Assembly (NCBI GenBank): GCA_963717075.1
Contig: CAVQVI010000023.1
Coordinates: forward strand, 16,778-80,777
DNA from: an uncultured Acidobacteriota bacterium
GTDB lineage: Bacteria > Acidobacteriota > Vicinamibacteria > Vicinamibacterales > CAVVIG01
Direction: 5' to 3'
DNA length: 64,000 nt
The stretch's first letter is position 1. The number at the start of each line of letters is the position of its first letter. The position numbers and the translations under genes were made by a program. The notes under the pieces were generated by a model that saw nothing but the letters and a program-made list of their open reading frames with translations, was not told the DNA's origin and did not search any database. Of this stretch, positions 7,212-29,170 are shown piece by piece.

Positions 7212-7586
7212 ATGGAGAGTTCTGTGGACACCGAGATGACGCGCGTGGAGAAGCCGTGGGGCTACGAATTGCACTGGGCGAAGACCGATCGTTACGTCGG
7301 GAAGATCATTCACGTGAACGCAGGCCACGCGCTGAGCCTTCAGTATCACAACATCAAGGACGAAACGATTCTGCTGTACTCAGGCAGGCTCCTCTTCGAG
7401 ATTCAAGAAGGCGACTCGCTCATGAAGCGTGAAATGAAGCCAGGCGAGCGGGTGCACATTACGCCGAAGACGATCCACCGCATGACCGCCATCGAAGACA
7501 GCGATATTTTCGAAGTCTCGACGCCGGAACTGCACGACGTGGTGAGGCTCGACGACAGATACGGGAGGGCGGATAGAAAGAGCTGA
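7212..7586 (+). CDS. Cupin-domain protein (mannose-6-phosphate isomerase type II C-terminal-like)
   Basis: 124 aa. Cupin motifs GHALSLQYHNIKDET and VHITPKTIHRM. Confidence 0.6.
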   Translation: MESSVDTEMTRVEKPWGYELHWAKTDRYVGKIIHVNAGHALSLQYHNIKDETILLYSGRLLFEIQEGDSLMKREMKPGERVHITPKTIHRMTAIEDSDIFEVSTPELHDVVRLDDRYGRADRKS

Positions 7587-7588
7587 GG

Positions 7589-7636
7589 GATTGCAGGACT
7601 TTCGGACAATCCTACAATCCTGCGATCCTGCAATTT
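7589..7636. terminator. Candidate bidirectional hairpin between the convergent cupin gene and ssb
   Basis: ATTGCAGGA (7592-7600) is complementary to TCCTGCAAT (about 7626-7634). A repeated aatcctNcNatcc motif lies in the loop, and a short T run follows. Confidence 0.3.
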
Positions 7637-7641
7637 CAAGA

Positions 7642-8085
7642 TCAGAACGGAATGTCGTCGTCGTTCAACGGCTCTGAGGGTTCCGGTGGGCTGGAGTGCC
7701 CACCGCCCATGGGTTCGCCGCCGCCACTCCGGTCCATTGACGCGCCGCGCCCACCTCCACCGCCCAGCAGGACGACCCGGTCGCCGCGAATTTCCGTGGT
7801 GTAGCGCTTATTCCCGTCCTTGTCGTCCCATTGGCGCGTCTGTAAACGTCCTTCGACGTAAATCTGCTTGCCCTTGGTGAGGTACTCCGTGAGGGATTCC
7901 GCAGATTTCCCCCAGAGCACCACACGGTGCCACTCGGTCTTTTCCTGCTTCTGACCGGCTTTGTCGTTCCAGACTTCCGTGGTGGCCATGTTAATCGTGG
8001 CAACAGCTGCACCGCCGGGTGTGTACCGCAATTCGGCATCCCGCCCGAGATTACCGACCAGAATCACCTTGTTCACGCTTCCCAT
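7642..8085 (-). CDS. ssb: Single-stranded DNA-binding protein
   Basis: 147 aa. OB-fold N-terminus ([19 protein letters not shown]), a Gly-rich linker and the acidic tail DDDIPF. Confidence 0.95.
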
Positions 8086-8112
8086 AGTGTCCGCATTCTA
8101 CATCGTCCGCAG

Positions 8113-9024
8113 TCAGGGTTTCCGAGCGAGCTGCGGCGATGCGAGCTGCGTGGCTGCGAGGCTGGCTTCCTGGCTGTTTGGAAATGTCTTCACGACATAC
8201 TCGAACGCCGTGCGCGCGTCATCGATGCGCGCCATGTTCTTGAAGGCCTGCCCCTTTCGATAGTACGCCTCGGCCAGTCTATTGCTGGTGGGATAGTTTC
8301 TGATGGCGACGTCGCATGCCTCGATGACTTTGGCATTGTTGCCCATCTGCAGATACGTGCTGCAGATGTACACCTGGGCATCGTCGGCCATCTCCGCGTT
8401 GGGGAAGCTCTTGATGTACGCCTCGAAGCCCTGAATCGCGAAATCATACTGGCCGGCCGTGTAGTCGCTGTACGCCTGGTCCCAGGCAGCTTTCGGTGAC
8501 ATGCCGATGCTGGTGGCCACCGGCTGAGCGGTCAGCGCGCCGTCGGGCGGGCCGAGGATAGGATCGACCGCGGATCGCCCCGCATTGATCTGAGTGACGA
8601 GCTGGCGCATCGCCGTGACTTCCTGCGTGAGCGATCCGATGCGCACGTTGTTCTCGTCTATCTTTTCGCGCAGGACGACCACATCGCGTGTCATCGCATC
8701 GATACTGACTTTCTGATTGGCGAAGCCCCGGGTCGTGCTGTTGTTCTGCTCCTCGAGCTTCGCATCGACGCGCGCGTTGACCGTCTTCGTGGCAGCATCG
8801 AGCGCGTCGCCCATGGCCTTGCTCATCGCGGCGATGAGGTTTTGCAGCTGCTGTAGCTGTTCCTGCAGCATGCGGATGTCGGCCATCATCTGACGCATTT
8901 CCTTGTCGGCCGCCAGCACGGTCCGCGTGCCGGGCCCGGGAATCATGACGAGCCCGGCTACGAGCGCGATGCTGAGCCACGCGGAGATCTTGATCGCGAA
9001 CACTCTGTGTTTCATGACAGTCAC
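8113..9024 (-). CDS. cpoB: Tol-Pal system protein CpoB/YbgF (coiled coil plus TPR)
   Basis: Signal anchor, a long coiled-coil segment and C-terminal TPR repeats (AEAYYRKGQAF). Last gene of the tol-pal cluster. Confidence 0.75.
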   Translation of the reverse strand: MTVMKHRVFAIKISAWLSIALVAGLVMIPGPGTRTVLAADKEMRQMMADIRMLQEQLQQLQNLIAAMSKAMGDALDAATKTVNARVDAKLEEQNNSTTRGFANQKVSIDAMTRDVVVLREKIDENNVRIGSLTQEVTAMRQLVTQINAGRSAVDPILGPPDGALTAQPVATSIGMSPKAAWDQAYSDYTAGQYDFAIQGFEAYIKSFPNAEMADDAQVYICSTYLQMGNNAKVIEACDVAIRNYPTSNRLAEAYYRKGQAFKNMARIDDARTAFEYVVKTFPNSQEASLAATQLASPQLARKP

Positions 9025-9632
9025 TTTGCCGTGATGACGAAGTGGGCGCGCCGGTTCTTTGCGTGCGATGCCTCTTCGTGTCCCGGATCGAACGGAAACT
9101 CCTTGCCGTAGGTGACCGTGCGCAGTCGATCCGCTGAGATACTCAGAGAAATCAAATAGGCACGAGCCGCAACCGCGCGCCGTTCGCCCAACGCCAGATT
9201 GTACTCGGCAGTTCCCCGTTCGTCGCAGTGCCCTTCAATGGTAACGGCCCAGGTTGGGTTGCGCTTCAGCAACGCGCCGTTCTCGTCGAGAGCCATCTGC
9301 CCATCAGGCGTGATTTCGCTGCTGTCGTACTCGAAGAAGACCGGTTTCAGCGGTGAGCTGCGATTCAAGTCGTCCAGCGAAGCCGACGAGATGGTCTCTT
9401 CCCGCAGGGGCTCAGGTGGCACTGGGAGCGGCTCGGCTGCCGGCTTGGGCGGGGCAGGTGGACGCGGAAAGGGTGTCGCCGGCGCCGCCGCAATCCGCGG
9501 GGGCGCTTGAGCACCACCCTCCGGCGGCAGCGGCCGCGCAACCGGTGCCTGCTTGCCCCCGCACGCGACAGCGGCCAATGTTCCCAGCATCGCGAGCAGG
9601 ACTGCGGCCCTCGAAACCGCGGATTCAATCAT
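9021..9632 (-). CDS. pal: Peptidoglycan-associated lipoprotein Pal (OmpA family)
   Basis: Lipobox LAAVAC after the internal Met (MIESAVSRAAVLLAML), a Pro-rich linker and an OmpA-like domain (TIEGHCDERGTAEYNLALGERRA). The track ORF starts upstream at 9689. Confidence 0.85.
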   Translation of the reverse strand: MIESAVSRAAVLLAMLGTLAAVACGGKQAPVARPLPPEGGAQAPPRIAAAPATPFPRPPAPPKPAAEPLPVPPEPLREETISSASLDDLNRSSPLKPVFFEYDSSEITPDGQMALDENGALLKRNPTWAVTIEGHCDERGTAEYNLALGERRAVAARAYLISLSISADRLRTVTYGKEFPFDPGHEEASHAKNRRAHFVITAK

Positions 9633-9708
9633 GTGCACTCCATCATCGGTCCGGCCGAGCCAGACGTGTTCTCTTTTCCCAATCCCCAATCCCCAGTCTT
9701 CCTAGTCC

Positions 9709-11112
9709 CTAGTTCCGGGGCACCTGCGACCAGTTCGCCATGCGATTGTTGCCGCCCTTGGTGACCTGTCGCACGTTCTTGCCATCCCGATCCATCGTGA
9801 AGATCTGCTCCTTGCCGGCACGTGTGGATGTGAAGGCAATGTGTCGGCCGTTCGGCGCAAAGGTCGGACTTTCGTTCGAACCCTCGCCAAAGGTCAGCTG
9901 GCGCACTGTGCCCGTTGTCACGTCGAGCACCTTGATGTCGTACCCCGGGCCCGTCTGCGCGGCGAAGGCGATCTCGTTGAACGGCGCAAGTGACCAGGTA
10001 GCACGATCGGCCTTGTTTTCGTGCGTGAGCTGCCGCTGGCCGAGACCGTCACCGTCCATTTCCCAGATCTGTTCGGTCCCCGTGCGGTCTGACGTAAACG
10101 CGATTCGGGCACCATTTGGTGACCACGTCGGTGTGATGTCATCCGCGCGGTTGTTCGTCAGGCGTCTGAGGTTGGAACCGTCGCGATTCATGACGTAAAT
10201 CTCGGCATTTCCGTCGCGCCACGACGTGAACGCAATTTGCGAGCCGTCCGGAGACCAGGCGGGCAACATGTTCTGACTCTTCAGATCGGTGAGCCAGCCG
10301 CCGGTGCCCTCGTAGATGTTCGCCACGAAAATATTGGCCTGGGCGTTGTTCTGCCACCGGGTGTACGCAATCGACCTGGCGTCGGGTGACCACACCGAGC
10401 TGATATTCAGCGAGCGTCCGGTTGTCACCTGCTTCACGCTCTCGCCGTCATAGTCCGAGATCATGATGTCCTTGACGCCGCGCGCTTCAATCGATCCGGT
10501 CATGCGTTCGCCGGATCGGTCCGAGTTGAAGGTCAACTTCGTCTGGGCTACGCCCTGAAGACCTCGCTGCTGGCGGTGGATATCGTCGGACGCCCGATGC
10601 GCGTATATGCGTGTGTTCGCCACGCCGCCGTTGTACGTCATGCCAAAGGCCGATTGACGCGTCCGCACGTTGAAGAGGCGCACCTCAACGTGCACGCCCG
10701 AGGCAGTTTTCTGCACGGTTCCCACAACAACGCCGTCGGCGTTCAATTCACGCCACCGATCGAAGGGCACCGTCGTCATCGACGTGGCGGCCGGCACCGT
10801 CGTCACAACATCGCGCGGGATCAGGGCGAATTCGCGTTCGTAGTTCAGATCGTCCCAGAGCACCCGGCCAATCGTCTTGGCGGCCTCGACCGTTTCGTTG
10901 TCGTTCGACAACGCGATGAACTCGGGCACGGCGAGCCGAGGCGCCGCGCCCGGCTGATCGCCCGTGATCGTGGTGCTCACCTCAGTCGGCTGCTGAGATG
11001 CAGGAGGCGGCACTGGCGTCTGCTGCCGCGCGCCGAGCGTTGCCGCTGCGAAGACACCGACTGCAAACGCCGCAGACCATCGGACTGGGGCCACACAGAG
11101 TATTCGCATCAT
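9709..11112 (-). CDS. tolB: Tol-Pal system beta-propeller protein TolB
   Basis: Signal peptide MMRILCVAP..., an N-terminal TolB domain, then repeated WSPDG..IAF.S.R.G blades. The start is placed at an ATGA overlap with the upstream gene; the track ORF extends to 11331. Confidence 0.9.
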   Translation of the reverse strand: MMRILCVAPVRWSAAFAVGVFAAATLGARQQTPVPPPASQQPTEVSTTITGDQPGAAPRLAVPEFIALSNDNETVEAAKTIGRVLWDDLNYEREFALIPRDVVTTVPAATSMTTVPFDRWRELNADGVVVGTVQKTASGVHVEVRLFNVRTRQSAFGMTYNGGVANTRIYAHRASDDIHRQQRGLQGVAQTKLTFNSDRSGERMTGSIEARGVKDIMISDYDGESVKQVTTGRSLNISSVWSPDARSIAYTRWQNNAQANIFVANIYEGTGGWLTDLKSQNMLPAWSPDGSQIAFTSWRDGNAEIYVMNRDGSNLRRLTNNRADDITPTWSPNGARIAFTSDRTGTEQIWEMDGDGLGQRQLTHENKADRATWSLAPFNEIAFAAQTGPGYDIKVLDVTTGTVRQLTFGEGSNESPTFAPNGRHIAFTSTRAGKEQIFTMDRDGKNVRQVTKGGNNRMANWSQVPRN

Positions 11113-16995: not shown

Positions 16996-17751
16996 ATGAT
17001 CGTCGCCATCGCCAACCAGAAGGGCGGCGTGGGTAAGACCACGACCGCCATCAACCTCGCCGCTGCGCTGGCGCTGCGTGGCAAACGCACGCTGCTCATC
17101 GACCTCGATCCGCAGGCCAACAGCACGATGTCATTCCTCGAAATGCCCGAGGTGACGCGTACGGTCTACGACGCGATTGCCGATCCGGCCGCCAGCCTGC
17201 GGGACGTGGTGCTCCAATCGCCGATCGAGAACCTGTGGGTGGCGCCGTCGCGCATCGCGCTCGCCAAGCTCGAAGCGCGGCTCGTGGGGGAGATGGACGC
17301 CCATTTTCGCTTGAAGGACAAGCTCGAGCCCCTGTTGGCGGATTTTCCGCAAGTTGTCATCGACTGCCCCCCGACGCTCGGTCTCTTGACGGTTAACGCC
17401 CTGGTTGCGGCGACGCATCTGCTCATTCCGATTCAGTCATCCTATTTCGCGCTCGAAGGCACCGACGATTTGCTCGAGACGATCGAAAAGGTGCGAGCGC
17501 GGCCCAATCCGGCTCTACGAATTCTGGGTGTGGTCATTACGATGCACGATAAGCGGACGGCGCTGGCCAGGGACATCCGGATGCAGATTCAGAAGGTATT
17601 CGGCGGGAAGGTGTTCAAGACCGTGATTACCAAGAGCGTACGCCTTGAGGAAAGCCCTGCCTACAAGGAGTCGATTTTCACGTTCGCTCCCGACTCGACG
17701 GGCGCGACGGAATACTACCGGCTGTGCGAGGAGGTCATCGACCGTGCCTAG
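16996..17751 (+). CDS. parA: Chromosome partitioning ATPase ParA/Soj
   Basis: Deviant Walker A NQKGGVGKTTT, DCPP and the full ParA length (251 aa). Confidence 0.9.
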   Translation: MIVAIANQKGGVGKTTTAINLAAALALRGKRTLLIDLDPQANSTMSFLEMPEVTRTVYDAIADPAASLRDVVLQSPIENLWVAPSRIALAKLEARLVGEMDAHFRLKDKLEPLLADFPQVVIDCPPTLGLLTVNALVAATHLLIPIQSSYFALEGTDDLLETIEKVRARPNPALRILGVVITMHDKRTALARDIRMQIQKVFGGKVFKTVITKSVRLEESPAYKESIFTFAPDSTGATEYYRLCEEVIDRA

Positions 17752-18568
17752 ACGTGGATTGCCGGATTTCGTTTCCATGCGTCACGACGAGCATTATGTG
17801 GAAGCACTGGCCGCATCGGCCGGGACGCCGGTCGGCCGCATGGTGCCGATTGAGCTGATGGACCCGAATCCAAACCAACCCCGCCAGGTCATGGGGGACC
17901 TGGCCGAGCTCATCGCCTCGATCAGCGAGAAGGGCGTGATCGAGCCCCTCGTCGTTCGCCAGCGCGGCGACCGTTTCCAGATCATCGCCGGCGAGCGCCG
18001 GTATCAGGCCTCGGTCCGGGCGGGTCTGCGTGAACTGCCGGTCGTGATCCGCGAAGTGGACGACACCGAGGTCATCGAGTTGGCCTTGATCGAGAACCTG
18101 CAGCGGAAGGACCTGACGCCGTTCGAGGAAGCCGAGGCGCTGCATGGGCTCGCGGAGCGGTGCGGGTACACGCACGAGGATCTTGCACGCCACCTCGGGA
18201 AGTCTCGCACCTCCATTACGGAATCGCTGGCCCTCAACGGCATGCCTGACGCGGTGAGAAGTCTCTGTCGGCTGGCCGACATTTCTGCTAAGTCTTTGCT
18301 TTTACAGGTTGTTAGGCAGGAGACTCCAGAGAAAATGACCGCTCTGGTCGAGAAGATGGCGAGCCAGGGAGGTGGAACGACACGCAAGCAGCTTCGAGAG
18401 GCCACGACGAAGCCAAAGACGGGTCGCCCGAAGCACTACACATTTGCTTACCGACCGCCAACCAAGCTGTTCAATCTCAAGTTGAGCTTTACGAAGAGTC
18501 GTGTCCACCGCGACGAGATCATCAGCGCCCTCGAAGCTATTATCGACGACCTTCGCAAGCAGAAATAG
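17744..18568 (+). CDS. parB: Chromosome partitioning protein ParB/Spo0J
   Basis: ParB box GVIEPLVV..FQIIAGERRYQA and an HTH (HEDLARHLGKSRTSITESL). The GTG start overlaps the parA stop; the track ORF starts too early at 17645. Confidence 0.9.
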   Translation: MPRRGLPDFVSMRHDEHYVEALAASAGTPVGRMVPIELMDPNPNQPRQVMGDLAELIASISEKGVIEPLVVRQRGDRFQIIAGERRYQASVRAGLRELPVVIREVDDTEVIELALIENLQRKDLTPFEEAEALHGLAERCGYTHEDLARHLGKSRTSITESLALNGMPDAVRSLCRLADISAKSLLLQVVRQETPEKMTALVEKMASQGGGTTRKQLREATTKPKTGRPKHYTFAYRPPTKLFNLKLSFTKSRVHRDEIISALEAIIDDLRKQK

Positions 18569-18953
18569 AAATAGGGTTGCCGGTCTCGCCATCGTCGGTT
18601 CGGCCGCCGGCGGGTGGGACCCGACACGTTACTGAATCGCGCATCGCAGGCCGGATGCCGGCCCTCGTTCGGACGCAGCGAATCTTTCGGTTCAACACGC
18701 GTGTCACCGCCAGCGCGAGATGACGCGCCACGAAAGGGTGCGGACCCCGCGGGCGCCGTACGAGCCGTTCGATGGCGCTCGAGCCGGCCCGTCCCGAAGG
18801 TAGTCCGCGGTCGAACGGGAAGCGCCCTTCGATCAGAGTCCCATACACGGAATCACCGGCCCTCAACGGCATGCCTGACGCGGTCTGTCAGCTGGCCGAC
18901 ATTTCCGCTCCGAAGTAGTCCACGGTCAAAGGGAAGCCTCCCTCGGTCAGAGT

Positions 18954-19317
18954 CCCACAAACGGAATCGCCGGGTCAACGGCATGCCTGACGCGGCGAGA
19001 AGCCTCTGTCGGCTGGCCGACATTTCTGCTAAGTCTGTGCTTTTACAGGTTGTTAGGCAAGAGAGGCCTGAGAAAATGACCGCTCTCGTAGAGAAGATGG
19101 CGAGCCAGGGAGGCGGAACGACACGCAAGCATCTTCCAGAGGCCACGACGAAGCCAACGACGGGTTGCCCGAAGGCTCTAGAAATATTTGCCTACCGACC
19201 GCCAGCCAAGCTGTTCAATCGAAAGCTGAGCTTTACGGAGAGTCGCGTCCACGGCAACGAGATCATCGGCGCCCTGGAAGCCACGTCGACGACCTCGGCA
19301 AGCAGAAATAGAAATAG
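18954..19317 (+). pseudogene. Non-functional copy of the parB 3' end (copy A2)
   Basis: Aligns by eye to parB 18214-18574 (NGMPDAARSLCRLADISAKSVLLQVVRQE...). It has no 5' part and carries a 1-nt deletion near the end (gccacgtcgac versus gctattatcgac). Confidence 0.85.
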
Positions 19318-19821
19318 GGTTGCCGGTCTCGCCACCGTCGGTTCGGCCGGCGGCGGGTGGACGCGGTACGTCACTGAATCGCGCATCGCAGGCCGGACAC
19401 CGGCCGCCCTTGGCTCGCACGCAGCGAATCTTTCGGTCAACACCGCGTCACTGCAGCGCGAGATGACGCGCCCACGAAAGCGTGCGGACCGGCAGGCTCC
19501 GCACGAGCGTCCGATGGCCCTCGAGGCGGCGTCCGGAATATCCGGAACAGAAGGTTGCCGGTCTCGCCACCGTCGGTTCGGCCGCCGGCGGGCGGGATCC
19601 GACACGTTACTGAATCGCGCGTCGCAGGCCGGATGCCATCCGCCCCGGTTCGGACGCAGGGAATCTTCGGTTCAACACGCGTGTTACTGCAGCGCGGTGA
19701 TGACGCGCCCAGCGAAAGGGTGCGGACCCCGCGGGCGCGCACGAGCCGTTCGATGGCTCTCGAGCCGGCCCGTCCCGAAGTAGTCCGCGGTCGAAAGGGA
19801 AGCGCCCCTTCGGTCAGAGTC

Positions 19822-20178
19822 CCATACACGGAATCACCGGCCCTCAACGGCATGCCTGACGCGGCGAGAAGTCTCTGTCGGCTGGCCGACATTTCTGCTA
19901 AGTCTCTGTTTTATGGGTTGTTAGGCAAGAGACTCCTGAGAAAATGACCGCCCTCGTCGACAAGATGGCGGGCCAGGGAGGTGGAACGACACGCAAGCAG
20001 CTTCGAGAGGCCACGACGAAGCCAACGACCGGTCGCCCGAAGCACTAGAAACATTTGCCTATCGACCGCCAGCCAAGCTGTTCAATAGAAAGCTGAGCCT
20101 TGCGGAGACTCGTGTCCGTGGCGACGAGATCATCGGCGCCCTGGAAGCCACGTCGACGACCTCGGCAAGTAGAAATAG
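19822..20178 (+). pseudogene. Non-functional copy of the parB 3' end (copy A3)
   Basis: Same segment as A2. TAC became TAG at 20046-20048 and there are extra indels. It shares derived changes with A2. Confidence 0.85.
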
Positions 20179-20457
20179 GGTTGCCGGTCTCGGGTGGGAC
20201 CCGACACGTTACTGAATCGCGCATCGCAGGCCGGATGCGGCCCTGGTTCGGACGCAGCGAATTTTTCGGTTCAACACGCGTGTCACCGCCAGCGCGAGAT
20301 GACGCGCCACGAAAAGGGTGCGGACCCCGCGGGCGCCGCAGGAGCGTCCGATGGCCCTCGAGGCGGCGTCCGGAATACTTTGCGGTCGAAAGGGAGCCCC
20401 CTTCGGCCAGGGTCCCATAATGAATGTTATGTTAACTAATGTTTGGGAGAGGACCCT

Positions 20458-22662
20458 CTATGCTGTCCAGTGCAGCGCTTCGAACCGCCCGTCTGGCACC
20501 CGCAGTTCAATCGGCCGGTGCGGCGGGTGACGCTCGACTTCCTTGTTCGTGATTGCGTTGTAGAGCGCCACGAAGAACGAGACCGCCTGCACACCCGCCA
20601 GGTCTTTCAACGGAAACGCGACTTCGAGCACGCGACCGAGGCCGATCGTCGCCGCTCCTGGGCCGCGTTCCCGCCAGCGTGGTACCTCGTCGCGATAGTC
20701 CCAGAAGATGCCTGTGACCCGGTTGTGGTCGCCGCGCACGGAAAAGCGCACGCCTTCAGGAGCCAGGAATTTGAACGACGCCTCATACCCACCGGCGAGC
20801 AGGTCCTTCATGGGCCGGTTCGCGTCCAGTCGAACGTACAGGTGTTCGGCGTCGAACCCGAAGCGTACCATTGTGAGGAGCGCGGGCGGCCGGTCGACGT
20901 GGTGCATCGCGCCGGCGATCTCACGGGGCTCGATCACGCCGGCGCCGAGCCACTCGAAGTAACTCGTCTCTTCCCCGTCCAGCGTCGGCGAGAGTCGCGC
21001 CGTCGGCTCGCTGTAGGATGCCGGGGCGGCGCCGACCGAGATGTTCGTGACGAAGAGTTCGTCGGGCACTGGCTTCTCGAGCAGCCGGTAGGCGTTCCTC
21101 AGGTGGCGGCGGAAAAGATCGTCGAACTCCAGATCGTGGTCCGATGAGTGATCGTCGCCATACCACCAGAACCAATCGCTGCCCTCCGCGATGAGGACTT
21201 CCTCCCGCGCGCGCGCGAGGGCCGTCGGCTCGACGCTGTTGGCGGTCCCGATGGCGTCGCGCGCGTCGGCCAGCTGACTCCAGGCGCGGTGGTCGTCGGG
21301 GTGTCCAATCCAGATGTAGAAGTTCGCATCGATCCAAGACCCCGGGAAGATGTTCCGAAGCTCGGGTCCACCGCCCTTACAGGCCTCTCCCATCGTCACC
21401 GTTCGCAGCTCGGGGTGGTTGGAGAGACGGCCGTAAAGCGCCCGGAGAAATGGGCGCCCTTGGCCTTCAAAGTGCTCCCAGGCATTCTCGCCGTCGAGGA
21501 TGATGGGAATCATTGCCTCTCCTCCGCCGGTTCGCGCCGCAAAGTGGCGCCCGGCCTCGGCCAGACGCCTGACGAAGTCGTCGGCGGCCCGCTCCGCGGG
21601 CCATCCTGCATAGGTGAACCCGATCAGGTCCGACAGCGCATGGTCCCGAAATACGCACGCGACACGAGCGCCGCCCGTCGAGATGACATACGGCGTGTAC
21701 AGCCGGTCGGGCTGATTCAGATCCCCGACGTCATCTCGGGCAAACGTCGTGTCAAGCGTCCTGGCAAGCACCTGTTCGTCAGTGGCCATCCACTTGAAGC
21801 CCGCCTGAGCAACAAGGGGCACCATGGCATCCGACACGGATCCTTCGGACGGCCACAGCCCGCTGGGCCTCGCCCCGAACAGCCGCTCATGGCAGTCGGA
21901 GGCCCGGATCAGCTGCTCGAGGGCATCCTCGGGATGCACGAACCGCTGCCGCGGCATTCGCGACTCGGGATGCGTGCGCTTGTACACGTCGCTGTCGCAG
22001 AGCAACGGGAGAATCGGATGGTAGAACGGCGACGTGGAGATCTCGATCTGCTGACGGTTCGCGGCCTCCTTGTATGCGGGAATCACCGCATTGAGGAGCT
22101 CGAGTTCAACCGTGCGCAGGACGCCCTTGTCGGCTTCGGTGAAGTTCCGCTGCTTCGTGATGAGATCTCGCACGCGAGCGTCTCCTTCAAGGTAGAACGG
22201 ATCGATCCAGGCGAGCTTCTGCCAGACCTGCAGGTCGCGCAGGTCATCGACCGTGAAGCAACCGGCAGCGCGCTCCCTATCGGCGGCGGTCGTGATCGGC
22301 CCGCGCCGTGCAAACAGTTCGGCATAGCGCGGATGGATCTCGATCATGCGCTGCCGGTGAGCATGGAAGAAGTGCTGCGCCATGAACGCGGCGTCGGCTC
22401 GGCTCAACTCGCTCGCCGGCCTGAGGGTCAGGTCCAGGTAGCGGTCGTGCGCCTGGTTCCCGGCGAACGCCTCGAGCTGGACGAGGAGCGAGGGCACGAG
22501 GTTGAACGTCATGCGGACCCCCGGGAACTCGCGCAGCAGCGCCACCATGCCGTAGTAGTCCTTCAGCGCGTGCAGTCGGACCCAGGGCAGGATGTGTTCA
22601 CGGGTGACGAGATCTTCGTAATACGGCTGGTGCATGTGCCAGAGAAGCGCCACGCGAGTCAT
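20458..22662 (-). CDS. Glycoside hydrolase family 57 protein (alpha-glucan processing enzyme)
   Basis: 734 aa. N-terminus LLWHMHQPYYED..HALKDYYGM is typical of GH57, followed by a long C-terminal region. Confidence 0.8.
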   Translation of the reverse strand: MTRVALLWHMHQPYYEDLVTREHILPWVRLHALKDYYGMVALLREFPGVRMTFNLVPSLLVQLEAFAGNQAHDRYLDLTLRPASELSRADAAFMAQHFFHAHRQRMIEIHPRYAELFARRGPITTAADRERAAGCFTVDDLRDLQVWQKLAWIDPFYLEGDARVRDLITKQRNFTEADKGVLRTVELELLNAVIPAYKEAANRQQIEISTSPFYHPILPLLCDSDVYKRTHPESRMPRQRFVHPEDALEQLIRASDCHERLFGARPSGLWPSEGSVSDAMVPLVAQAGFKWMATDEQVLARTLDTTFARDDVGDLNQPDRLYTPYVISTGGARVACVFRDHALSDLIGFTYAGWPAERAADDFVRRLAEAGRHFAARTGGGEAMIPIILDGENAWEHFEGQGRPFLRALYGRLSNHPELRTVTMGEACKGGGPELRNIFPGSWIDANFYIWIGHPDDHRAWSQLADARDAIGTANSVEPTALARAREEVLIAEGSDWFWWYGDDHSSDHDLEFDDLFRRHLRNAYRLLEKPVPDELFVTNISVGAAPASYSEPTARLSPTLDGEETSYFEWLGAGVIEPREIAGAMHHVDRPPALLTMVRFGFDAEHLYVRLDANRPMKDLLAGGYEASFKFLAPEGVRFSVRGDHNRVTGIFWDYRDEVPRWRERGPGAATIGLGRVLEVAFPLKDLAGVQAVSFFVALYNAITNKEVERHPPHRPIELRVPDGRFEALHWTA

Positions 22663-28189: not shown

Positions 28190-29170
28190 TCAAGAGCGGG
28201 GGTGAAAACGATCATAGACGGCACGCAGCCGTGCTTCGAGCACGTGCGTATAGATTTGCGTCGTCGACAGATCGGCGTGCCCGAGCATCGTCTGGATCGC
28301 GCGGAGATCGGCACCTCGCTCGAGCAGGTGCGTGGCGAAGGAGTGACGGAGGACATGTGGGCTGACCGATACGCCGAGGCCGACCTGCCGGCTGTAGCCC
28401 TTGAGGATCTTCCAGAAGCCGACACGGCTGAGCGGCCGACCGCGCGCGTTCAGAAACAGCCGCGGCGTGGGCCCTGTTCCGGTGCCCTTCTTCAGGAGCA
28501 CGGGTCTTCCATCACGCTGGTAGCGGCGCATCCAGTCGGCAGCCTGCTCGCCGACGGGGATCAGTCGCTCCTTGTTTCCCTTTCCGATGCAGGTGACGTA
28601 GTGCGCATCGAGATGCAGGTCGGCGGCGCGGAGTCCAACGAGTTCTGAGACGCGCATGCCGGTCGCGTAGAGCAGCTCGATCATCGCGCGGTCGCGCAGC
28701 CCGCGCAGGGCGTTGGTGTCGGGTGCCGCGATGAGGGTATCGACCTGTTCGAGTGACAGAAACTTCGGGAGCGCGGCCCAGGCCCTGGGCGGATGCAGAT
28801 CGTCTGCGGGGTTGTGAGCGATCTGTCGATCGACGACGAGATACTTATAGTAGCCGCGCACCGCGGCAACAGCCCGTCCCACCGACCGTGGAGACAGCCC
28901 ACTCGTCATCTGCTGCCGGACGAACGCCTCGAGCGCCCTGCGATCGAGCGCCTCCGGTCGAGCTTTCCGCGACGCCGCGAACGCGGCCAGCGCCTGCAGG
29001 TCGCGCGCGTAACTCTCGAGCGTGTGCGTGGCCAGACGGCGTTCGATGCGGAGGTGGTCGAGGTACGAATCGAGGGTGGTCATTGATTGTTGGATGTTGG
29101 TCATTGCCGTTGGCCCTTGGCCGTCGACTATGCTAGCATCCGCGGTTTGTTCTCCTGAGGTCTGTTCCAA
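28190..29170 (-). CDS. xerD: Tyrosine recombinase XerD/XerC
   Basis: N-terminal SAM-like domain (LDSYLDHLRIERRLATHTLESYARDL) and catalytic residues (ATGMRVSEL, HVLRHSFATHLL, LGHADLSTTQIYTHV). The true start is probably an internal Met near 29083-29104. Confidence 0.85.
   Translation of the reverse strand: MEQTSGEQTADASIVDGQGPTAMTNIQQSMTTLDSYLDHLRIERRLATHTLESYARDLQALAAFAASRKARPEALDRRALEAFVRQQMTSGLSPRSVGRAVAAVRGYYKYLVVDRQIAHNPADDLHPPRAWAALPKFLSLEQVDTLIAAPDTNALRGLRDRAMIELLYATGMRVSELVGLRAADLHLDAHYVTCIGKGNKERLIPVGEQAADWMRRYQRDGRPVLLKKGTGTGPTPRLFLNARGRPLSRVGFWKILKGYSRQVGLGVSVSPHVLRHSFATHLLERGADLRAIQTMLGHADLSTTQIYTHVLEARLRAVYDRFHPRS

Follow-up and report, generated by a model that had tools for sequence, protein, structure and literature searches.

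The spacer between the partition gene parB and a convergent gene for a GH57 glycoside hydrolase contains a tandem array of host DNA that ends in dif, the dimer-resolution site of the chromosome, recombined by XerC and XerD. The locus lies in 64,000 nt (the window) of contig CAVQVI010000023.1, from an uncultured bacterium of the Vicinamibacterales (Acidobacteriota). The array arose within its own lineage, its extra parB ends have decayed neutrally, and the interval that holds it is a hot spot of duplication throughout the lineage. It belongs to the tandem segmental duplications with pseudogene decay: its units run head to tail, its paralogues are nearer to each other than to orthologues, and coding constraint has been lost. 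It is unusual in having one end at a site-specific recombination site, and in the recurrence of such events in the same interval across an order. The favoured origin, to which a probability of roughly 55% is given, is an illegitimate exchange associated with dif, followed by unequal crossing-over and decay.

A tandem array of host DNA ending in dif

Head-to-tail copies of two modules occupy 18218-20420: A, the last 355 nt of parB, and B, the 270-nt spacer that follows it. Self-BLAST, a repeat search and alignments of the A and B copies recovered the array within a few nucleotides of where an initial annotation of the window had placed it. The copies are pairwise 82-89% identical over 230-640 nt, with E values down to 0, well above any chance similarity. 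Self-BLAST pairs 18218-18845 with 19828-20419 (85.1% over 631 nt), 18218-18798 with 18961-19538 (86.9%), 18910-19540 with 19775-20377 (84.8%), and 18575-18909 with 19553-19899 (89.2%). With 18150-20460 as the query, it found no similar sequence elsewhere in the window. Divergence among the copies is 11-18%, with private indels, so that the earlier figure of one position in ten is roughly right but slightly low.

17744-18568, + strand: parB, intact functional copy, 274 aa (ParB_N 9.8e-29, HTH_ParB 8.4e-14)
18209-18229, + strand: dif-like sequence ACCTCCATTACGGAATCGCTG in parB, left boundary of the repeat unit (from alignment)
18218-18845, + strand: Unit 1, A1 (18218-18574) and B1 (18575-18845); B1 ends in a copy of the XerC arm, GTCCCATA, at 18838-18845
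18846-18959, + strand: Unit 2, internally deleted, a′ (head of A, 18846-18909) and b′ (tail of B, 18910-18959)
18960-19540, + strand: Unit 3, A2 (18960-19316, pseudogene) and B2 (19317-19540, tail short by ~45 nt)
19541-19826, + strand: Unit 4, 12 nt that may be left over from an A tail, tccggaacagaa (19541-19552), and B3 (19553-19826)
19827-20409, + strand: Unit 5, A3 (19827-20178, pseudogene) and B4 (20179-20409, 24-nt deletion), continuing straight into dif; as a repeat copy B4 reaches 20420, its last nucleotides extending into dif
20410-20437, + strand: chromosomal dif, with XerC arm GGGTCCCATAA, centre TGAATG and XerD arm TTATGTTAACT (consensus match)
20458-22662, − strand: GH57 glycoside hydrolase gene, convergent with parB (Pfam Glyco_hydro_57 1.2e-54)

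This layout fits five strict-tandem A+B units, two of them with large internal deletions. Unit 2, whose b′ ends in GTCCCACA (18952-18959), is short of ~510 nt between a′ and b′. B3 ends in GTCCCATA at 19819-19826; the 12 nt that precede it were compared by eye with the A tails (cggcaagcagaa) and are assigned to a remnant of such a tail with low confidence. No credible open reading frames (ORFs) were found in the array units. A 389-aa ORF at 18614-19783 (+) extends over B1, A2 and B3 and across repeat junctions, in a frame other than that of parB and the A copies. It was treated, with no homology search made, as most likely a chance ORF of repeats rich in guanine and cytosine (GC), to be annotated as no gene.

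A ParB protein search of species-representative genomes yielded 80 comparison loci (L001-L080), nearly all labelled Vicinamibacterales or Acidobacteriota, with ParB identities to the window of 74-91%. Metagenome loci (L081-L160) bring the relatives to 160. The closest is L001 (91% ParB identity), and no closer relative was found among the metagenome contigs. The convergent parB/GH57 order is conserved in most of the loci, with a spacer that is usually 70-700 nt (185 nt in L001) and measures 1890 nt in the window.

An all-against-all comparison of these spacers revealed one element common to 62 of 63, in either orientation. Its consensus is AGTTAACATAA-CATACA-TTATCAGAC, the opposite strand of which reads GTCTGATAA-TGTATG-TTATGTTAACT; the clade consensus for dif is given as GTCTGATAA-TGTATG-TTATGTTAAC, with an 11-6-11 layout. 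The element is a dif site as judged by its 28 bp, in which a 6-bp centre is flanked by two 11-bp arms of partial dyad symmetry, and by its resemblance to known sites. Escherichia coli dif is GGTGCGCATAATGTATATTATGTTAAAT, with arms and centre GGTGCGCATAA-TGTATA-TTATGTTAAAT (PMC3025954). The consensus XerD arm agrees with it at 9/10 shown bases and the consensus centre at 5/6; for the window the figures are 10/11 and 4/6 (TGAATG). The XerD arm is the better conserved in the clade and the XerC arm the more variable, as reported for all phyla (PMC3025954). The site is single in the window, occurs once per locus in 78 of the 80 genome loci, always just after parB, and is also present in ~45 metagenome loci, those long enough to show it; L033 carries a degenerate second copy. 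The junction microhomology and the AT-rich patch described initially both belong to this one 28-bp site, which had not been recognised.

The repeat unit extends for 625 nt from parB codon 159 to the border between the XerC arm and the central region of dif. On the parB side, homology with A2 and A3 begins at ACGGAATC (codon 159). Codons 157-161 (TCCATTACGGAAT), read directly and without gaps, are identical to the XerC arm and centre of dif (TCCCATAATGAAT) at 9/13 positions. Relative L006 has this parB sequence natively, so it was not made by conversion from the junctions. On the dif side, B1 and B3 end in GTCCCATA and b′ in GTCCCACA, corresponding to the XerC arm; next comes (C/A)ACGGAATC, the parB sequence that starts at codon 159. 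B4 passes unbroken into the true dif. The array thus abuts dif, and its inner junctions retain the XerC arm alone. By parsimony, the three junctions are each one substitution from an ancestral GTCCCATAA joined to ACGGAATC. This reconstruction from diverged copies would place the crossover within 1 nt of the border between arm and centre, where XerC cuts; Xer cleavage is at the edges of the central region (PMC5357621). CCAT and GAAT stand 5 nt apart in the junctions, against 4 nt in parB and 3 nt in dif. The crossover was out of register with the shared bases, as a cut at the arm border predicts and microhomology slippage does not.

A2 and A3 are 89% identical to A1 and 91% identical to each other. 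Against the orthologous segment of L001 they are 75% identical, and A1 is 80% identical. Being nearer to A1 than to L001, A2 and A3 arose from the parB of their own lineage after its split from L001, and are old. A1 itself is the native parB end and not an imported replacement, given that nearly all 80 relatives match ParB over residues ~1-270 or beyond. Private substitutions are spread evenly over the codon positions (A2 5/4/7, A3 6/3/6), which, together with frameshifts and an in-frame TAG in both pseudogenes, indicates neutral decay.

The initial reading of individual changes needs some revision. A 1-nt deletion common to A2 and A3 (gccacgtcgac versus gctattatcgac) is borne out by the alignment. 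A second difference, cgaaagctgag versus ctcaagttgag, is also common to both but is not derived in them: their state, CTG, is the clade consensus, which puts the change on the A1 side. What had been described as a simple TAC to TAG change at 20046-20048 in A3 is a 2-nt insertion with a substitution (CACTAGAAAC versus CACTACAC). A2 has a related, non-identical indel at the matching place (GGCTCTAGAAAT, 3 nt longer than A1) that also yields an in-frame TAG. The view that the array is old and was not made in a single step holds, both from the extent of divergence and from the pairs of most similar copies (B1 with B3, B2 with B4, A2 with A3), which point to growth by further unequal exchanges.

Module B has no homologue in the 80 related loci, PLSDB plasmids or INPHARED phages, and no exact 25-mer match in metagenome contigs. 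The initial annotation had considered a dispersed miniature inverted-repeat transposable element (MITE) or insertion sequence fragment, for which a match elsewhere in the window or in the related loci is missing. B1 begins right after the parB stop codon and B4 meets the array end, indicating that B is the lineage's own version of a fast-evolving spacer. With permissive E-values, Rfam models returned nothing in 17500-21000 beyond an nhaA-I match at chance level (E 0.92), and no sigma-70-like promoter was found in the array, where terminator-like matches correspond to a palindrome described below. Two candidate identities were discarded: a structured RNA, B1 folding no better than shuffled sequences (z −0.37), and a diversity-generating retroelement or set of silent cassettes, there being no nearby reverse transcriptase, differences that are neither adenine-specific nor confined to one variable region, and frameshifts.

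Recurrent duplication in the parB-dif-GH57 interval

The 80 loci and the window (972 kb) were surveyed by self-BLAST for direct repeats of at least 100 nt. Nine sequences contain them, and in eight (L002, L022, L024, L030, L033, L050, L071 and the window) they lie in or touch the parB 3′ half, the spacer or the GH57 3′ end. In L030 only the second copy is in the interval, the first being upstream of parA; L073 has the only repeat pair wholly outside. The interval makes up ~7% of the surveyed sequence and is one of ~ten spacers per locus. A heavily decayed second parB is found in L041, and metagenome loci L098, L104, L114, L115 and L159 provide further cases. Independent duplications have thus struck the parB-dif-GH57 interval in many related soil bacteria. 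It is a duplication hot spot across Vicinamibacterales, and looks like a recombination hot spot more than a new mobile element.

The duplicated pieces of parB start at codons ~30, 73, 100, 120, 159, 172, 205 and 232 (L041 ~30, L050 ~120, the window ~159, L071 ~205, the others in L098, L104, L114 and L159). This variety rules out a site-specific attachment point inside parB. Several boundaries abut dif: in the window, inside the site; in L071, at most 7 nt from the XerD arm; in L030, at 5 nt; and in L033, where the unit contains dif and reaches the GH57 3′ end, and the XerC arm of the second dif copy is 2 nt shorter. By a rough estimate, the chance of three dif-abutting ends among ~13 events is P ~0.02; an excess beyond chance is suggestive, not conclusive.

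Other rearrangements were seen in and around the interval. A 109-nt element of L030 (5116-5224 and 6841-6946), with inverted short repeats GGGTAAT(C/T), lies upstream of parA and again between parB and dif, where it stops 5 nt short of dif; an iteron-like or MITE-like element on both sides of the operon is conceivable. In L002, 2.9 kb separate dif from the GH57 gene (7232-9866) and hold a tandem pair of paralogous PKD-like lipoprotein genes (745 nt, 85% identity), an insertion and a duplication on the far side of dif. In L115 (4872-5075), about five tandem 38-40-nt repeats (ccgtagcgcgaggctttcgccgagcg...) occupy the spacer up to a point 30 nt from dif. Many of the short metagenome contigs among L081-L160 contain a parB and end ~40-200 nt past its stop codon, and population heterogeneity or repeats in the parB-dif spacer could account for these breaks.

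Between its conserved neighbours parB and GH57, dif varies in orientation among relatives. The XerC arm is toward parB in the window, 12 genome loci and 6 metagenome loci, and the XerD arm in the others. The ParA/ParB operon is 35-1250 nt upstream of dif in every Vicinamibacterales locus long enough to show it. Chromosomal parAB genes are normally near the origin. Here the origin-linked neighbours rsmG, mnmG and dnaA are absent near parAB, and the operon is preceded by recN and by genes for a radical SAM protein of the MiaB type and a bifunctional nuclease.

16996-17751, + strand: parA, 251 aa (matches to Pfam AAA_31/CbiA/ParA); its stop codon overlaps the GTG start of parB
28190-29170, − strand: xerD, 326-aa tyrosine recombinase (NCBIfam TIGR02225 recomb_XerD 358.3 bits, cut-off 329.6)

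The xerD product matches Pfam Phage_integrase and Phage_int_SAM_1, and its gene is 8 kb from dif, adjoining a gene for S-adenosylmethionine synthetase. No xerC was found among the window ORFs scanned. The G-rich words GGGGGAG, GGGNAGGG and GGGAGGG switch strand at dif, at positions such as 4716 and 17286 (+) and 24066, 25633, 29247, 33610, 49327 and 60766 (−). Counts of GGGGGAG on the + and − strands are 2/0 to the left of dif and 0/6 to the right, where three or more of the six fall within plus-strand genes; GGGNAGGG to the right occurs 0 times on + and 6 on −, and GC skew changes sign, from +0.020 on the left to −0.006 on the right, these figures being for the 64-kb window only. Pooled k-mer polarity over the loci (140/3 versus 8/91) is confounded by the conserved orientation of homologous genes and was set aside, only window-level counts being taken as support. 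The words are candidates for the FtsK-orienting polar sequence of the clade. The 28-bp site is taken to be a functional dif, and the terminus would lie here as judged from 64 kb.

Origin and maintenance of the array

In the favoured account, the founding event would be an illegitimate exchange, in direct orientation, between dif on one sister and parB TCCATTACGGAAT on the other. It may have proceeded by a strand exchange that XerC catalysed and replication resolved, the route of dif-integrating elements, or by repair of a nick or break at a dif site bound by XerCD. The product would have left parB and dif intact and added a hybrid junction in which the XerC arm continues into parB at codon 159. 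Unequal crossing-over of the RecA type among the units would then have expanded the array to at least five A+B units, as its layout suggests. In the decay that followed, the extra parB ends became pseudogenes and two units lost ~400-500 nt internally. The array would have persisted because its junctions have no XerD arm, so that Xer could not remove units, and because divergence of 11-18% would make deletion by homologous recombination, the efficiency of which falls with sequence divergence, inefficient.

In published work, the dif region of E. coli is a fragile site with recurrent breaks (PMC8213236), gene amplification in Staphylococcus aureus is impaired by loss of XerC (PMC12795462), and integrative mobile elements exploiting Xer (IMEX) integrate via XerC-only exchange (PMC5357621).

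Several points weigh against this account. Xer catalysis between dif and parB is proposed from sequence, and the parB site would be a poor XerC arm (5/11 in the best register), with no recognisable XerD arm. The 1-nt precision of the crossover depends on an ancestral junction reconstructed from three diverged copies, two of them non-independent. Duplications in L050 (570 nt away), L022 and L041 do not touch dif, and the boundaries that abut it differ in the part they hit, be it the inner border of the XerC arm, the outer border of the XerD arm or the entire site. Selection could also enrich for ends near dif, if duplications that broke parB, the GH57 gene or dif, or that left two working dif sites, were lost. 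Finally, assignment of the terminus rests on sequence features in 64 kb and not on a whole genome.

Some of the same observations would be expected of plain microhomology, in which slippage or template switching at TCC-AT-A..GAAT made the first tandem duplication, unequal crossing-over expanded it, and neither dif nor Xer had a role. The end of the array at dif would then be a coincidence, or a result of selection against disturbing dif or the GH57 gene. The endpoints do have 9 of 13 bases in common, the duplication endpoints of L050, L022 and L041 are unrelated to dif, the convergent spacer tolerates insertions, and the copies decay neutrally. This is the most serious competitor and is nonetheless considered unlikely: the junction does not keep the register of the shared bases, repeats cluster in one of the ~ten spacers of a locus, and three other genomes have boundaries at dif or within 7 nt of it. 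Of the mechanisms proposed initially, repeated microhomology-mediated duplication was the closest, in that the array is an in-lineage tandem duplication, but the register of the junction does not fit it. Since the supposed microhomology matches dif, and the junction sits at the border of arm and centre, the anchor is dif and not parB as such.

Whatever its origin, the array could have been kept because it is useful, a possibility compatible with a dif-associated beginning and close to the third mechanism proposed initially, a cis-acting array associated with ParB. It concerns a palindrome inside parB, with the structure TGTCGGC-TG-GCCGACA.

18266-18281, + strand: 16-bp palindrome TGTCGGCTGGCCGACA in parB, codons 175-180 (recognised by synonymous-site invariance)
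19007-19022 (A2), 19876-19891 (A3) and 18886-18901 (a′, one mismatch): further copies of the palindrome

These four copies of TGTCGGCTGGCCGACA in the window, one with a mismatch, compare with 0.07 expected by chance. In codons 175-180 (TGT CGG CTG GCC GAC ATT; TGTCGGCTGGCCGACATT, 18266-18283), synonymous sites are 94-100% invariant among 80 genomes, and neighbouring ones vary freely; a 15-nt core, TGTCGGCTGGCCGAC, is exact in 157/160 relatives. The codons include TGT and ATT, which are rare in this genome of 63% GC. The invariant motif is a real nucleic-acid element, and its extra copies may be under some constraint. Among 161 sequences scanned (the 160 loci and the window), 154 have the palindrome once, within parB; additional copies beyond the parB end are confined to the window, L041, L050, L066 and L114. 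A second patch of synonymous conservation was seen at 18296-18337 (codons 185-198), with TTG (185), CAG (188), GTT (190), AGG (191) and AAA ATG (197-198). It is responsible for a local dip in GC to ~54%, and could be an internal start preceded by its signal, or belong to a larger DNA or RNA element.

The palindrome is possibly a non-canonical ParB site. If TGTCGGCTGGCCGACA were a protein-binding site, most plausibly a loading site for this divergent ParB, its duplication would provide extra sites beside the operon and would recall sopC of the F plasmid, where 43-bp units, each containing an inverted repeat of 16 bp, are repeated in tandem immediately behind sopB. The invariance of codons 175-180 and of the core favours such a role, as does the lack of any canonical parS with up to three mismatches in the 64-kb window; none was found as an exact match in the 80 loci. 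The GHAR motif usual in the recognition-helix region of ParB is missing from this ParB. Palindromes in the pseudo-copies have 4 mismatches in 96 positions (A2 0, A3 0, a′ 1, L041 0, L114 0, L024 3) against ~15 expected from local divergence (Poisson P ~1e-3), a test that leaves out the 35-nt relic of L066, which was ascertained through the motif itself. Both this relic and the short a′ fragment are centred on the palindrome, and the longest run invariant among A1, A2 and A3 (33 nt) covers it.

Against maintenance for this purpose, a run-length test within the window gives only P = 0.05, the L024 copy is without its left half-site, and the duplications in L071, L022, L104, L098 and L159 exclude the palindrome. 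The array is also not conserved among relatives, the closest, L001, having no extra copy in its 185-nt spacer, and gene conversion between copies could equally keep short tracts. Selective maintenance of the array is accordingly regarded as doubtful. It is interesting to speculate further that in Vicinamibacterales a divergent ParA/ParB pair is hard-wired to dif, with the palindrome as loading site and duplications by Xer at dif repeatedly building selected, sopC-like arrays between parB and dif. This bolder proposal is thought improbable; were it true, the window would contain a chromosomal centromere array in the making, at the terminus and not at the origin.

Mobile elements and other comparable systems

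Serial integration of small mobile elements, IMEX-like or driven by an integrase at the parB 3′ end, each with a copy of that end, had been offered as a second mechanism. The array does abut dif, the attachment site of Xer-exploiting elements (PMC5357621), and its junctions retain the XerC arm in the manner of hybrid att sites. However, each unit consists of host parB end and host spacer without foreign cargo; integrase, replication and phage genes are all missing; B is unmatched in plasmids, phages, metagenome contigs and the 80 related loci; A2 and A3 resemble the host parB more closely than that of any other genome, and A1 is native; and left boundaries vary between genomes. Integration of this kind is very improbable. 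Mis-assembly of one parB end and spacer into several copies is scarcely credible: although the retrieved relatives are all metagenome-assembled genomes, as the window may be, and many short metagenome contigs end just past parB, other assemblies hold comparable arrays in contigs measuring 160 kb to 1 Mb (L002, L033, L050), and a divergence of 11-18%, distinct junctions, internal deletions and indels private to single copies set these apart from assembler duplications, which would be near-identical.

By analogy, the array seems to work most like the stacking of units against dif by Xer-exploiting elements. IMEX arrays at dif (TLC/CTX/RS1 in Vibrio cholerae, the gonococcal genetic island) likewise comprise head-to-tail units stacked against dif, with an intact dif at one end and inner hybrid junctions that retain one recombinase arm; the inner junctions here, with the XerC arm alone, may be of this kind. 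The IMEX route of XerC-only exchange followed by replication would give exactly the junction seen here (PMC5357621). In contrast to these arrays, the units are the host's adjacent DNA, there is no attP circle and there are no genes, and the partner would be a weak dif-like site in a host gene. Without foreign cargo, the array is not a member of the IMEX group.

Tandem segmental amplification, illegitimate at first and RecA-dependent later, resembles the array in its novel first junction, homologous later ones, intact gene at the first copy and pseudogene decay. The array differs in having one end fixed at a site-specific recombination site, in being old (11-18% divergence) and not transient, and in lying in an interval that has been hit repeatedly across the order. 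Breaks and repair intermediates centred on dif, as at the fragile terminus of E. coli, could feed local duplication (PMC8213236), but that fragility is described over tens of kb as breaks and Holliday junctions, not as fixed tandem duplications ending in dif. The resemblance to sopC lies in several 16-bp palindromes just downstream of a ParB-family gene. Unlike sopC, the 625-nt units are mostly pseudogene, the primary palindrome is within the gene, the arrangement is not conserved in relatives, and ParB binding is putative. Integrative elements that target the 3′ ends of tRNA or protein genes also leave a duplicated 3′ end downstream of an intact gene; here, however, no element lies between the copies, there is no integrase, and the boundary varies between genomes.

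No description of host-DNA tandem duplications ending in dif was found in the literature, nor of parAB-dif linkage or parS in Acidobacteria. The earlier statement that no equivalent at parB has been described is correct in a narrow sense, but the relevant comparison is with rearrangements at dif. For annotation, the AT-rich patch at the array end should be named dif.

The value of the array lies mainly in its anchoring at dif and in the hot spot, and additionally in the parAB-dif linkage and the invariant palindrome. Should dif and Xer seed duplications of neighbouring host DNA, dif would be a recurrent source of local structural variation in ordinary chromosomes and not only a landing pad for phages. 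The pattern in Vicinamibacterales provides a natural set of at least 13 independent events with which this can be tested. The position of parAB beside dif and the invariant palindrome in parB could, either of them, change the view of chromosome segregation in a major and little-studied soil lineage.

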